DNA from: Escherichia phage vB_EcoM_ESCO10
Sequence record: OM386655.1
Reading direction: 5' to 3' (one strand)
DNA: 64,000 nucleotides
Shown: positions 1,742-24,650 of the stretch, piece by piece
Position numbering within the stretch: the stretch's first letter is position 1
Layout: each line of letters starts with the position of its first letter
The notes under the pieces: generated by a model
The model's database searches: none
What the model was told of the DNA's origin: nothing
Seen by the model: only the letters and a program-made list of their open reading frames with translations
Made by a program: the position numbers and the translations under genes

Positions 1742-2845
1742 TTAATAGACGTAATCGTATATAATACCAGCTTCCAATGCCGAACGGTGGACGATACGAC
1801 CGTTACGAGATTCCTGTACATCAACTTCCGGGTAATCACTAAGCATTTTGGCTAATACAGCCAGATGACAATAATACGGTGTATCCTCTTTAGTGGCTTT
1901 TTTCCAATCTGTACTTTCAGATGTTAATTTCTGAATAGCGTCCATAACCCACCAACCACACCAAATATACGCAGTATTACGGACAGGAAGTGGATGTACA
2001 TAAATTAAAGGACATTCTTCTGGAACAACAGGCTCTGCTTCTGCCACCGTAACAGACTTATTACCTGATTTAACTGAATTTGTAAAGCCTGATTGTGATG
2101 CAGTAACTTCACAAGTATATGACTTCAAGCCTTCAGTGGATTCCGTTATTGCTCTTGTTGCTTCTGTTGAGTTGTCGTCCCATTTATATGCAAGAGTAGC
2201 ACCAGGGATAGCAGGGGACACGGAAGCTGTCAAATTGAATGGAACATCAACCGTTGCAGTAGACGGGCCTGAAATCTCAACAGTGAACTCAGGAAATGTA
2301 TTGTTTTCGACCGTAACAACTACTGCATCAGGATTAATAACTTGGTTGTCATAATCTGCAGCAGAAATGGTAATTTGACAAGTTAAAGAAACCGGTCCTG
2401 CAACAGTAGCGGTGCGAGTAATATCTTTGGTAGTTTCACCGGTAGACCACAAATATGCTATTGAAGCTCCACCAGGTTCACCTGTTACATTAGCCGAAGC
2501 TTTATATTCCTGTCCAACTTTAACGGTAGGAGTGGAAGTTGTTAATGTTGCGGTTGCAGACATAGTCTTATTATTAACTGTGATGGTTGTTTGAGCCTCT
2601 GCCGTTTCAGGCTCTCCTTCTTCCGGCGTTGTGGTGGCAACAACTTTAATTACTTTTGAACCTGCTGGCCCAGCTGCAATATAATCCATAGTAGCAATAA
2701 CAGAATCTTGTGGAACCTCATCAACGGTCCATACAAAAGATTCGGTACCAGCGACAGCGGCTCCAGCTCCAGTGGCAGTAAAATTAGTTGTTGCACCTAT
2801 AACCGCTGTAGGTGTTAAAGGGGCAATTGATACAGTATAAGCCAT
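1742..2845 (-). CDS. hoc: highly immunogenic outer capsid protein Hoc
   Basis: tandem Ig-like domains; C-terminal YVHPLPVRNTAYIWCGWWVMD...VQESRNG matches T4 Hoc; ATG 2845 preferred over track TTG 2857. Confidence 0.8.
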   Translation of the reverse strand: MAYTVSIAPLTPTAVIGATTNFTATGAGAAVAGTESFVWTVDEVPQDSVIATMDYIAAGPAGSKVIKVVATTTPEEGEPETAEAQTTITVNNKTMSATATLTTSTPTVKVGQEYKASANVTGEPGGASIAYLWSTGETTKDITRTATVAGPVSLTCQITISAADYDNQVINPDAVVVTVENNTFPEFTVEISGPSTATVDVPFNLTASVSPAIPGATLAYKWDDNSTEATRAITESTEGLKSYTCEVTASQSGFTNSVKSGNKSVTVAEAEPVVPEECPLIYVHPLPVRNTAYIWCGWWVMDAIQKLTSESTDWKKATKEDTPYYCHLAVLAKMLSDYPEVDVQESRNGRIVHRSALEAGIIYDYVY

Positions 2846-2872
2846 AAAAATCTCCAAAAGGCCACTAGGGCC

Positions 2873-3556
2873 TTAGTTTAAACGAATAAAAGATGAGTTA
2901 CGTGTTTCACGAATAAGAATGGAACCGTCACGATTGATATAGTAAATCAAACTAAACAATGTTTGGTGTGCGCTTGCATGAGCAAAAGAAGTGGGGCGTT
3001 CTTTCCAGTCCGGGGTCTCTTTAATCCACTGGTAAATCCACCAAGGGAGGGTACAATACCCAGGAGCTTTGCCCAGCATAAGCAGATTAGGACTAAAATT
3101 TTCAGGTAATTTAAATTTAGGTTTTTCAGATTCAACAATCTTAGATACGGCTTCTTCGAACTTCTCTTCAACAAAAGGAGTTTCAACAACAGCTATTTCA
3201 ACTGTTCCTGGGGTATCTTTTATTTCAATAACTTCAACAGGTTCGGCAGGAGCCGTCGGAGCGTCAAACAATAATTTAGCTTCAATTTTAGATTCTTCAA
3301 CATTTGCCAGGTGAGCATTAGTGCCCTGAAGCTCATCGTCGGCATCGATTAAATCAGTAATAGATAAACCTTCAGTTTCAGGTATAGGTTCATCTGCTAT
3401 AGCCTTAAGGGCTTCAGCGATGTCTATTACCAAGTTGTCAAAACTTTTAGTTTTCTTAAGTTTTAAACCGAACTGTTCGCCGTATTCGATTAACTTAGCT
3501 TTAGCTTCTTTTTTATCTTCGAGTGAACGAAGCTCTTCAATATATTGAGTATCCAT
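2873..3556 (-). CDS. putative Inh-like protein (prohead protease inhibitor) by synteny and size; acidic
   Basis: 227-aa ORF immediately upstream of hoc as in T4; no motif recognised. Confidence 0.4.
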   Translation of the reverse strand: MDTQYIEELRSLEDKKEAKAKLIEYGEQFGLKLKKTKSFDNLVIDIAEALKAIADEPIPETEGLSITDLIDADDELQGTNAHLANVEESKIEAKLLFDAPTAPAEPVEVIEIKDTPGTVEIAVVETPFVEEKFEEAVSKIVESEKPKFKLPENFSPNLLMLGKAPGYCTLPWWIYQWIKETPDWKERPTSFAHASAHQTLFSLIYYINRDGSILIRETRNSSFIRLN

Positions 3557-18939: not shown

Positions 18940-20463
18940 TTATAACCCTGTCTGAGACCAATCACCAAATACGTCTTCAAACGTATCAGCTTCTGTTTTA
19001 TCAAATCGCCAACCTTTAATAATTGGGAGGAAAATACCTACAGTATCAGTACGTCCTTTAGAATGAACCCAACCATTGCATTCACAATCAGCAATACGTC
19101 CAATCAACTTACCTTCACGTGCTTGTTTCATAAGAAGTTCACGGTCTAAATCAGGACGATCTTCCAATGGAATCGACACCTTTTTACCTGATTTATCTTT
19201 CTTATGGGTGGTATCTTTAAAGCCAGAACCGCAGTCACTTGTAATTCGACGACAACGTGATACTAACTCGACACCACCAAGTTTGTTAGGGTCTTTAGAG
19301 TGTTCATAATAACCTACTACTTCTAAAGCGATATCGATTACTTCTTTGAACTTGATAAGATTCTTAGAACGGCGGTTTTCCCAGTAGGAGTCCATGTTCT
19401 TAAGGATAATACCTTCCAGACCTTGGTCGACGTATTTTTTATAAACGACTTTAGCTTCAGCCAAATTGTTAACCCATTGGTTTTCAATAGCTTCAACACG
19501 TGTTGTACCATGCAATACGACATTATGAGCAACCATAAGTTCTAAGGCAGTAAAGCGTAAATCATACTTATCGCCTTTAATTTTACCTTCGGAATACACT
19601 ACATCTAACGGAACGTAATCCCACGCCTGTAATACCATGCCAGCAGCTTCAGTAGCAGAAATAGTTCCTTGAAGAGCTTTGTTAGCCAAGCCGTTTGATG
19701 TAGAACGATCGGCGACGGTTTGGAATTCCTTTGCCTTACTTAATTCAGGGACTTCTTCATCAAACATGCTAAACAGGTCATTGGATGTTTTGGGTTCAAC
19801 CTTAGGGGTATGGTAAACTAATTCACCGTCAATCATAACACCATTAGGATGACGTTTACGAGCTTCTTCAGTCATCACCATTAATTCGGCTGCCAAAAGA
19901 TTAAGTCCTTGGTATTCATTACCACCACGGGTAAGGAATGTAACACCCGAATCACGTACTTCAGCAAAGCAACGAGCCCCATCAGCTTTTAATTGAGCAA
20001 ATGCAGGCCATTTAATATTTTTCTTAATCAGAGCTTCATCATAAGAACTAGCCAACATCTGAGGTTGTTCAGGGATTAAACCTTTCCAAACCTTGTTGGC
20101 AATAGAAATAGATGCACCACATTCAAGGTCACGCATCATTACACGACGTAATACCTCAACATCTTGTCCTTTGGCATCGGCAATAATTTGGGCAAGTTCT
20201 TCAATGGCCGCATTACCTGTAATCTTACGGGTGGCTAATGTGAACTCAGCGAAATCAAGAAGGTCTTCAAGTGTAATCATACCAAAGGATTGAGACGTAA
20301 ATCCAGGTTCTGGCCACTTTTTAATACCGTAGTTTAATCGGCGCGTATAAGCCATACGATAAACACGTTTAAGAAGCTCGTTGTCCTTTTCACGAGCAAT
20401 AATAGCTTCTTTAGCTTTGGTAGAATCGATAGCAGCAATTTCGTTCAAGATATCTAAAATCAT
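18940..20463 (-). CDS. 30: ATP-dependent DNA ligase gp30
   Basis: strong match to T4 DNA ligase; start at MILDILNEIAA. Confidence 0.95.
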   Translation of the reverse strand: MILDILNEIAAIDSTKAKEAIIAREKDNELLKRVYRMAYTRRLNYGIKKWPEPGFTSQSFGMITLEDLLDFAEFTLATRKITGNAAIEELAQIIADAKGQDVEVLRRVMMRDLECGASISIANKVWKGLIPEQPQMLASSYDEALIKKNIKWPAFAQLKADGARCFAEVRDSGVTFLTRGGNEYQGLNLLAAELMVMTEEARKRHPNGVMIDGELVYHTPKVEPKTSNDLFSMFDEEVPELSKAKEFQTVADRSTSNGLANKALQGTISATEAAGMVLQAWDYVPLDVVYSEGKIKGDKYDLRFTALELMVAHNVVLHGTTRVEAIENQWVNNLAEAKVVYKKYVDQGLEGIILKNMDSYWENRRSKNLIKFKEVIDIALEVVGYYEHSKDPNKLGGVELVSRCRRITSDCGSGFKDTTHKKDKSGKKVSIPLEDRPDLDRELLMKQAREGKLIGRIADCECNGWVHSKGRTDTVGIFLPIIKGWRFDKTEADTFEDVFGDWSQTGL

Positions 20464-20473
20464 AATCACCTCA

Positions 20474-20752
20474 TTAGTCATGGATTCTATTATAAGCCAC
20501 ATCAGCCAAAAGCAAGTCTAATCTCTTATGATAAGAGAACACAAATCTCATTTGACCGTTGGATTTCATTTTAGACATAAAGTGGACATAGATAAATCCT
20601 TGCTCAACGCATTCACGCCAGACCGGATGGTCTTTAGCAGGGTTTACATCAAAAGAATAATCATGATTCACATGTCGAATAAACTGGTTTACATGACCGT
20701 AATCCATTGTAGTGGTAGGGCCACGGTCTGAAATTGTATGAACTACAAACAT
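20474..20752 (-). CDS. hypothetical protein (30.1-like)
   Basis: ORF track; internal ATG abutting upstream stop. Confidence 0.45.
   Translation of the reverse strand: MFVVHTISDRGPTTTMDYGHVNQFIRHVNHDYSFDVNPAKDHPVWRECVEQGFIYVHFMSKMKSNGQMRFVFSYHKRLDLLLADVAYNRIHD
20489..20516 (-). promoter_or_regulatory. MotA-dependent middle promoter for gene 30
   Basis: minus cTTGCTTtt, 15 nt, TATAAT ~25 nt upstream of ligase ATG. Confidence 0.4.
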
Positions 20753-20753
20753 A

Positions 20754-21392
20754 TTAACCTCGAGCAACCCATTCAACGGCTGTATTATTACGAAGAGATT
20801 CGATAGCTGCTATATCGTCCCACGAATTAACCTTTACTGCTAAATTAGGTTTAAAGTCACGTTCACCACGGGCCAACCAATAAACTTGGATATCCATGAG
20901 AACATTAGATGCAGCATCACAGTGGTGAGCCAAATCATCAACATAAAACTTAATACGCTTACCATAAGTATTTTTAGCTCTTACGAACAGGTCTTCTTTT
21001 GATTCTGAATGGCCACACATCAGAATCTCCTTGAATGCGCCAGGGAACAAAGCATTCAAATTGAATTGTCTATTCAGCAGGGCATCAATTGAGTCGCCTA
21101 GCGCAGTCACGGCTACAAAATCGAAGTCTTTTTTGAGCTTGTTGATATGTTTTAGTGCGTCCATATAAGGAGACAGATAACGAATGAAATCTGACTGATT
21201 GTATTTCTCGATTAAACGAGCGCCTAATTCGTTGTCACAATTAAACAACTCACCTGGAGATAAGAAACGTTCGTCCTGAATCATATTCAAAATATGTTCT
21301 AAAGGCAGATTATATTTCTGTGCAAAATAAGGCAAGCCAGACTGCCAACTTAAACATACTCCATCGATATCTGTTAAGATAACTGGTTTCAT
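20754..21392 (-). CDS. HAD-superfamily-like hydrolase (30.2-like)
   Basis: N-terminal DIDGV motif-I-like sequence. Confidence 0.5.
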   Translation of the reverse strand: MKPVILTDIDGVCLSWQSGLPYFAQKYNLPLEHILNMIQDERFLSPGELFNCDNELGARLIEKYNQSDFIRYLSPYMDALKHINKLKKDFDFVAVTALGDSIDALLNRQFNLNALFPGAFKEILMCGHSESKEDLFVRAKNTYGKRIKFYVDDLAHHCDAASNVLMDIQVYWLARGERDFKPNLAVKVNSWDDIAAIESLRNNTAVEWVARG

Positions 21393-21856
21393 AATAAATC
21401 TCTCAATTTGTTTAGGATGTCGATAAACTCTTTTTCAGTTAGTATTGTATCACATTCTGTAAGGTGGCTTGCCATCGAATGCTTTAAAACTTTGCCTTTT
21501 GTAGCTTGTAATGCGTCGCGGAATCCTTTGTTTTGGAGCGCCGCTTCAAAATACGCATTTTCATACAACTCTTTCCATGCTGCAGAGTATCTTGAAAACG
21601 GAACTCCAAGCCAGAACAACGTGCCACGGTCCGCAGCTCTTGCATAAGCTCTTCCAGTTTGTTGGGCTGCAAGCCCGGACATCCTAAATATACGTCTTTG
21701 TTGTTCAACATTTTTCACCTTACACCCTTGGAGGAATCCTTCGAGTCCACCAAATTGGATACCGTCCATAACAAAAGGCCACTTAGCAAAGTTACTTAAT
21801 GCACATGATGGCCATGGGAAATTACTTCTAATTTCTAACTCAGACATCTTTAACAC
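21389..21856 (-). CDS. NADAR (YbiA/DUF1768)-like protein, putative ADP-ribose processing enzyme (30.3-like)
   Basis: F-SNF...PF..DG..F...EG.LQ..K......Q..I......A...GR pattern resembling NADAR signature. Confidence 0.5.
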   Translation of the reverse strand: MLKMSELEIRSNFPWPSCALSNFAKWPFVMDGIQFGGLEGFLQGCKVKNVEQQRRIFRMSGLAAQQTGRAYARAADRGTLFWLGVPFSRYSAAWKELYENAYFEAALQNKGFRDALQATKGKVLKHSMASHLTECDTILTEKEFIDILNKLRDLL

Positions 21857-22052
21857 TTATAATATCGATATCACACCAATGGCCATAACCCGGTAGACGG
21901 TCTTCAACAGATAAACCGCTGACATATTTGAGCATCGTTGTTTTCATTATAACAGGTTCAATATCTTGACCGCCTGGGCGAACGTCTGTTACGCGATAAG
22001 TCACTTCGACCATTTCAGTACCTAACAATTTCTGAATCAGTTTCTTAAACAT
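21840..22052 (-). CDS. hypothetical protein (70 aa)
   Basis: ORF track; overlapping start/stop packing. Confidence 0.45.
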   Translation of the reverse strand: MFKKLIQKLLGTEMVEVTYRVTDVRPGGQDIEPVIMKTTMLKYVSGLSVEDRLPGYGHWCDIDIISVKDV

Positions 22053-23436: not shown

Positions 23437-23464
23437 AAACAAAAATGGGACTCCGAAGAGTCCC
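23437..23464 (-). terminator. intrinsic terminator
   Basis: GGGACUC-UUCG-GAGUCCC hairpin followed by UUUUUGUUU on minus strand. Confidence 0.6.
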
Positions 23465-23469
23465 ATAAC

Positions 23470-24326: not shown

Positions 24327-24650
24327 TCACTTATAAAGACACGGAATAGCTTTATAATGACAAGTAACGAATTTCTGTTTAATTTCTTTAGGCTGTTTAA
24401 TACCTAATGCAACTAACGGATGAGGCACGTTAGCAATCTTACCGACAGGAAGTGGGGTCAAATCACCTACTTCACAAAAATCTTCAGGGACATCAGGTCC
24501 TACAGAATAAACTTCACAGAGTTCAGGGATTTCACCTTGATGAAGTTTGCCAATAACGATACCTGATGCAGTAGTTTCTTCATCACCAGCTTGTTTTGGT
24601 TCGGAAACGAGAATAATATATTCTCCGACCGCTTTAATAGGAAGTTCCAT
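24327..24650 (-). CDS. 31: co-chaperonin gp31 (GroES-like)
   Basis: close match to T4 gp31 (...[23 protein letters not shown]). Confidence 0.9.

Follow-up and report, generated by a model that had tools for sequence, protein, structure and literature searches.

Here we show that gene 30.3 of Escherichia phage vB_EcoM_ESCO10 (OM386655.1), which lies in a 64,000-nucleotide stretch of this T4-like myovirus genome (hereafter, the window), is an orthologue of T4 adfN, with the NADAR fold, the catalytic residues, the C-terminal helix and the gene position all in place. By analogy with the T4 protein, it is very probable that the gene encodes an enzyme directed against DarT1. For this allele, which differs from that of T4 at 19 of 152 residues, the enzymatic activity, its restriction to guanine and its part in counter-defence are predicted from the T4 orthologue; the same function is the most likely one because the two proteins are 88% identical and every functionally defined element is intact. 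The anti-DarTG1 function is itself already known from T4, and the allele agrees in all respects with what has been published.

Resistance of T-even phages to DarTG1 was mapped by Johannesman et al. (Nat Commun 2025, PMC11825919) to gene 30.3, which was renamed adfN. T4 AdfN was reported to strip ADP-ribose, as a purified protein, from DarT1-modified DNA in vitro, to show no two-hybrid interaction with DarT1, to restore plaquing of RB69 on DarTG1 cells when expressed, and to have no effect on DarTG2, a thymine modifier (PMC11825919). Reversal of the guanine-ADPr made by DarT1, and not of the thymine-ADPr made by DarT2, has also been described in vitro for the T4 enzyme (PMC11125620), and its guanine-ADPr activity is reported again in PMC12945103, where reversal of cytosine-ADPr is listed only for the NADAR and YbiA-type families. 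AdfN of T2 is functional as well (PMC11825919). In uninfected E. coli the T4 protein gives no rescue from DarT1, and it reaches full activity only in the course of T-even infection, a dependence that the authors proposed to explain by a phage factor (PMC11825919). In a transposon screen of T4 (HIDEN-SEQ preprint), 30.3 was dispensable on K-12, and insertions in it were lost under DarTG1 (log2FC -7.25, adjusted p 0; supplementary file 7); we took this table to be the one for DarTG1 because it comes ahead of the DarTG2 sheet and because the main text describes the loss of 30.3 insertions under DarTG1. A first-pass annotation of the window had proposed that the gene counters DNA ADP-ribosylation by DarT-type toxins. 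For the guanine modification made by DarT1 this holds, by way of the T4 orthologue and the close identity of the window protein to it; extended to all DarT-type toxins it is too broad, the thymine modification made by DarT2 falling outside the range of the T4 enzyme.

The proposed course of events is as follows. AdfN, a small single-domain enzyme of NADAR fold, would be produced early in infection. Host DarT1 would ADP-ribosylate guanine in phage DNA and so block replication; AdfN would hydrolyse the N-glycosidic bond between ADP-ribose and guanine (guanine-N2), restoring the DNA, and the phage could then replicate in hosts carrying DarTG1. The predicted target is thus the product of the toxin, not the toxin.

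Membership of the T4 protein family is evident from profile and pairwise comparison. The window protein matches PF08010 (Phage_30_3) at E=8.3e-66, scoring 220.5 bits where the cut-off is 36, with residues 12-150 covering profile positions 2-138 of 138, and PHROG 652 at E=2.8e-51, and BLASTP against T4 gp30.3 returns 133 identical residues out of 152 (88%) at the same length and with 0 gaps (E=1e-102). The gene is widespread, with 1,510 phage records carrying it by tblastn and hosts that include Escherichia, Klebsiella, Shigella, Aeromonas, Acinetobacter and Vibrio. Codon differences from T4 comprise 48 synonymous and 19 non-synonymous changes, and third positions account for 57 of the 88 base differences; the main frame of adfN is therefore under purifying selection.

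Placement in the wider NADAR superfamily was reached by several routes. The first-pass annotation had noticed the pattern F-SNF...PF...G..F...E...Q..K, which is indeed present at residues 18-43 (S18-N19-F20, P24-F25, G29..F32, E36, Q40 and K43), far beyond chance. A direct match to the NADAR profile PF08719, which it had named as a check, did not materialise: at E<=1 the AdfN sequence finds PF08010 only. The family is nonetheless recovered otherwise, since 25 of 98 relatives scanned individually match PF08719 (best E=1.5e-7) and hhalign of the 97-sequence family profile against E. coli YbiA gives a probability of 92.6% and E=4.5e-7 over 106 columns. Searched as a single sequence against the PDB, the protein finds E. 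coli YbiA (PDB 2B3W) at E=0.39, and with the family profile YbiA is the sole PDB match, at E=0.019. Structure prediction, likewise suggested at the outset, agrees: an AlphaFold2 model built on the 97-sequence alignment (mean pLDDT 94.4, pTM 0.89) displays the predicted NADAR alpha+beta fold, with a helical core flanked by small beta-hairpins, while a single-sequence AlphaFold model (pLDDT 35.9) was unusable. Identification of the window protein as a NADAR is well supported by this transitive and profile homology together with the fold (AlphaFold2, Foldseek).

The catalytic residues, far from being absent, are conserved: E36 and K43 (Table 1) are the same in T4 and T2 in the alignment, and in T4 AdfN the changes E36A and K43A and truncation of the C-terminus each impair the enzyme or lower protection (PMC11825919). 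A third position, at the last strand, sets NADAR branches apart: YbiA-type proteins have Glu there, DarT1-associated NADARs have Asp, and the gp30.3 proteins of phages have His (PMC11543638, PMC11125620, PMC12945103). H123 of the window protein stands immediately after the last beta-strand of the AlphaFold2 model (residues 120-122), and the hhalign match to YbiA stops one residue before YbiA E125; replacement of the last-strand Glu/Asp by H123 fits the hhalign result, the model and the literature. In a plain MAFFT alignment H123 is placed opposite a different YbiA histidine. The C-terminal helix is intact, as judged from the model and from a length of 152 aa equal to that of T4. The RB69 allele, by comparison, carries a frameshift that truncates 15 residues and removes this helix, and it is reduced in activity and non-protective (PMC11825919).

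The arrangement of genes on the minus strand (gp31, rIII, 30.9, 30.8, 30.7, 30.6, 30.5, 30.4-like, adfN, 30.2, 30.1 (DUF3045), DNA ligase; Table 1) is the same as in T4 and in T2. The gene had been assigned to the 30.x cassette at first reading, and the succession 30.4, 30.3, 30.2, 30.1 and ligase found in both reference phages upholds this. It had also been described as a 155-aa product of 21389-21856. An open reading frame does run on the minus strand from a GTG at 21856 to 21389, and the frame stands; the start does not, as the ATG at 21847 is the start in T4, T2 and the nearest relatives and yields a 152-aa protein beginning MSELEIR. The adfN start codon should, by this comparison, be corrected to 21847. 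Between this ATG and the stop of the 30.4-like gene there is an overlap of 8 nt (ATGTCTGA), and the stop of adfN shares ATGA with the start of 30.2, T4 and T2 being alike in both respects; translational coupling probably operates among these tightly packed 30.x genes. Pfam and PHROGs searches of the neighbouring 30.4-like gene and 30.2 revealed neither DarT nor any other ART domain.

Table 1. Positions in the window of adfN, its functional elements and its neighbours
Feature	Position	Strand	Evidence
gp31	24327-24650	-	cassette order
30.4-like gene, 70 aa, upstream of adfN	21840..22052	-	phrog_2042 E=1.6e-30
adfN (gene 30.3), 152 aa + stop, single NADAR core domain	21389..21847	-	
E36 codon, catalytic glutamate	21740..21742	-	invariant in 98 homologues; aligns with YbiA E48
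K43 codon, catalytic lysine	21719..21721	-	at least 90% conserved in 98 homologues; aligns with YbiA K55
H123 codon, phage-NADAR histidine	21479..21481	-	invariant in 98 homologues
C-terminal helix, residues 138-152	21392..21436	-	model helix 138-151; length as in T4
30.2 homologue, 212 aa, HAD-superfamily phosphatase-like	20754..21392	-	74% identity to N-terminal 194 aa of T4 gp30.2
gp30.1 homologue (DUF3045)	20474-20776 as listed, TTG start at 20776	-	
DNA ligase	18940-20502	-	cassette order

Two signals on the minus strand bear on the transcription of this region: a strong terminator-like hairpin at 23445-23466, with a 9-bp stem and a T-run, which follows the 30.9-like open reading frame, and, upstream of 30.7 at 23011-22984, a site that resembles a promoter and has an extended -10. 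This combination suggests that the genes from 30.7 to ligase, adfN included, form one transcription unit.

Comparison of the 24 kb around adfN (window positions 10000-34000) with a phage collection of 50,697 records placed the region closest to the Dhakavirus-type phages IME281, IME08, JS10, C6 and fDHCT2, at approximately 90-91% nucleotide identity. With the best matches at only this level, the phage may therefore, at least across 10000-34000, represent a species without a counterpart among those records.

The preferred reading, that AdfN of the window removes ADP-ribose left on DNA by DarT1, has to be weighed against others. Its main natural substrate might be something else, such as RNA guanine-ADPr or soluble ADPr derivatives produced by other defences, with DarTG1 as one facet of a broader role. 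All NADAR families, that of T4 included, are reported to remove guanine-ADPr from RNA in vitro (PMC12945103), and the authors of the AdfN study speculate that some counter-defences also detoxify other ADP-ribosylating systems (PMC11825919). The T4 orthologue, however, is required for growth where the host carries DarTG1 but not on plain K-12, is linked to DarTG1 alone among defences, and directly de-modifies DarT1-treated DNA, and we regard this alternative as improbable. Very unlikely, too, is that the allele has decayed and lost its protective capacity like that of RB69. Loss of function does occur naturally, as the RB69 frameshift attests together with several database entries that are truncated to 89-126 aa, and the window protein has accumulated 19 substitutions relative to T4; against this, it retains the full 152 aa together with E36, K43, H123 and the C-terminal helix, and the preponderance of synonymous changes speaks for continuing purifying selection.

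Two further alternatives concern the mode of action and the substrate. Neutralisation of DarT by binding the toxin, as other anti-DarT factors (AdfA/AdfB) do (PMC11825919), would dispense with catalysis, and another recently described phage NADAR, unlike AdfN, acts independently of enzymatic activity (PMC11825919, discussion). For the T4 orthologue the lack of a two-hybrid interaction with DarT1, the impairment caused by catalytic-site mutations and the de-modification of DNA by the purified enzyme all argue otherwise, and the catalytic residues are conserved in the window protein; a binding mechanism here appears extremely unlikely. The chance that the gene encodes a YbiA-type housekeeping N-glycosidase acting on intermediates of the riboflavin pathway seems close to negligible. 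Among solved structures YbiA is the nearest in sequence, and TIGR02464 ('riboflavin biosynthesis intermediates N-glycosidase') gives a weak match (E=0.064, 13.5 bits) in an NCBIfam scan that returned only sub-threshold noise for AdfN; that score, however, lies far under the 73.7-bit cut-off, the last-strand Glu that defines YbiA-type proteins is a His here, the published tree puts the phage clade nearest the DarT1-associated NADARs (PMC11825919), and a lytic phage has no evident need for an activity on riboflavin intermediates.

Set beside characterised systems, the DarT1-reversing enzyme proposed here resembles T4 AdfN most closely. Besides identity, ungapped length, E36, K43, H123 and the C-terminal helix, the two genes share their setting, flanked by 30.4 and 30.2 ahead of DNA ligase, and their start and stop overlaps agree. 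They differ in the 19 substitutions, of which several (G128H, K131E, D132C, A139K, L147K and S151L) lie within the final 30 residues, and in that the present phage is Dhakavirus-like (approximately 90% nucleotide identity to the nearest records) and not a Tequatrovirus. The differences from DarG1, represented by the Geobacter lovleyi NADAR (PDB 8BAT) and the NADAR of E. coli C7, are more substantial: no DarT gene lies next to the window gene, which is thus an orphan, its product has no N-terminal extension (152 aa compared with 219 aa in 8BAT), the catalytic Asp of DarG1 is replaced by His, and the T4 orthologue, unlike DarG1, does not serve as an antitoxin in uninfected cells (PMC11825919). 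The window AdfN would work like DarG1 without being a DarG1. YbiA, a PF08719 protein whose gene belongs to a host operon under LexA control and which has been connected with swarming and with riboflavin intermediates, shares approximately 22% identity with the window protein, carries Glu in place of the last-strand His and confers no protection against DarT1 in vivo (PMC11125620). The orphan NADARs AdfN(Bas32) and AdfN(Bas60) of T5-like and Vequintavirinae phages also reverse DarTG1 and are guanine-specific, but belong to other, independently acquired NADAR clades and, unlike the T4 type, need no further phage factor to neutralise DarT1 in uninfected cells (PMC11825919). The window protein belongs to the AdfN(T4)/Phage_30_3 clade of the NADAR superfamily.

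The dependence of the T4 protein on T-even infection draws attention to its neighbours. The 30.2 homologue begins MKPVILTDIDGV, and the DIDGV noted in it at first reading as HAD-like is a genuine HAD motif I: 59 homologues share D8, D10, K132, D152 and D153 without exception and T96 at a level of at least 90%, so that all four HAD motifs (DxD, Ser/Thr, Lys and the acidic pair) are present. Database matches within this superfamily are weak. The only profile matched by the window protein is NT5C, below the cut-off at E=0.075; among its relatives PF00702 is found in 12 of 59 (best E=2e-4) and NT5C likewise in 12 of 59 (best E=0.003), and in the PDB a 5'(3')-deoxyribonucleotidase matches best, weakly, at E=0.16. 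At 212 aa, the protein is without the C-terminal extension of approximately 85 residues found in T4 gp30.2 (278 aa). The database homologues fall into a short class of approximately 200-230 aa and a long class of approximately 260-340 aa, with the HAD core common to both.

As a helper of AdfN, gp30.2 is a poor candidate. The 4 kb on each side of 30.3 include its gene in T4, T2, fDHCT2, an Acinetobacter phage and Klebsiella phage Matisse, but lack it in Krischvirus JEP8, Aeromonas 44RR2.8t, Vibrio K567 and Agrobacterium Atu_ph04. In the T4 screen, insertions in 30.2 are not depleted where those in 30.3 drop (log2FC -0.12, not significant; HIDEN-SEQ, in the table inferred to be that for DarTG1). 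The gene is a neighbour of adfN and at most a putative partner. In the same comparison, T4 30.4 is mildly depleted (log2FC -1.79, adjusted p 0.014; HIDEN-SEQ supplementary file 7, part 11, again inferred to be the DarTG1 table). T2 30.4 is frameshifted, being split over two reading frames and annotated as only 28 aa, yet T2 AdfN works, which makes gp30.4 an unlikely, if conceivable, helper. Insertions immediately ahead of 30.3 probably have a polar effect on it, which is the simpler explanation of the depletion in T4 because the frameshifted 30.4 of T2 coexists with a functional AdfN.

It is conceivable, if rather unlikely, that the His-bearing clade of T4-type AdfN, the present allele included, has a second natural substrate besides DarT1-modified DNA, for example RNA guanine ADP-ribosylated by an undiscovered host defence toxin, and that the T-even potentiating factor directs the enzyme to its substrate. 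If so, that factor might be an essential or redundant phage gene, since 30.2 and 30.4 are argued against by the T4 screen and the T2 frameshift, respectively.

The family, fold, chemistry and anti-DarTG1 role of the T4 orthologue were published between 2023 and 2025, and its authors noted homologues across T4-like phages. Annotation has yet to follow: in 25 of 25 best-matching records listed, the matched genes other than DNA ligase, adfN among them, are labelled 'hypothetical protein'. The window gene can be named adfN with confidence. Its intact allele predicts that the phage would resist hosts that carry DarTG1, a property of use in the selection of phages for therapy. To the identity of the T4-type helper factor, the window adds only that 30.2 and 30.4 look like poor candidates.

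Some further features of the locus deserve mention. Nested in adfN, at 21484-21711 on the minus strand, lies a 75-aa ATG open reading frame in the +1 frame, whose 136-nt offset and length are the same as those of T4 30.3', annotated there as 'internal translation in a different reading frame'. This frame is open in T4, T2 (69 codons) and fDHCT2 and closed in distant homologues. A separate conserved product was considered and rejected: the nested frame shows no sign of constraint of its own because it diverges faster than the main frame (approximately 60%, by an estimate made by eye, versus 88% identity to T4).

The gp30.1 homologue probably starts at an ATG at 20752 instead of the listed TTG. 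It is approximately 44% identical to T4 gp30.1, compared with 74% for 30.2 and 88% for 30.3 beside it, and the gene is a site of local divergence or a mosaic hot spot. In fDHCT2, the nearest relative by AdfN protein identity (96.7%), two tandem 30.4-like paralogues occupy 2574-3008 (L002) and are 67% and 50% identical to the single copy of the window; copy number in the small-gene cassette of the 30.x region differs among close relatives.
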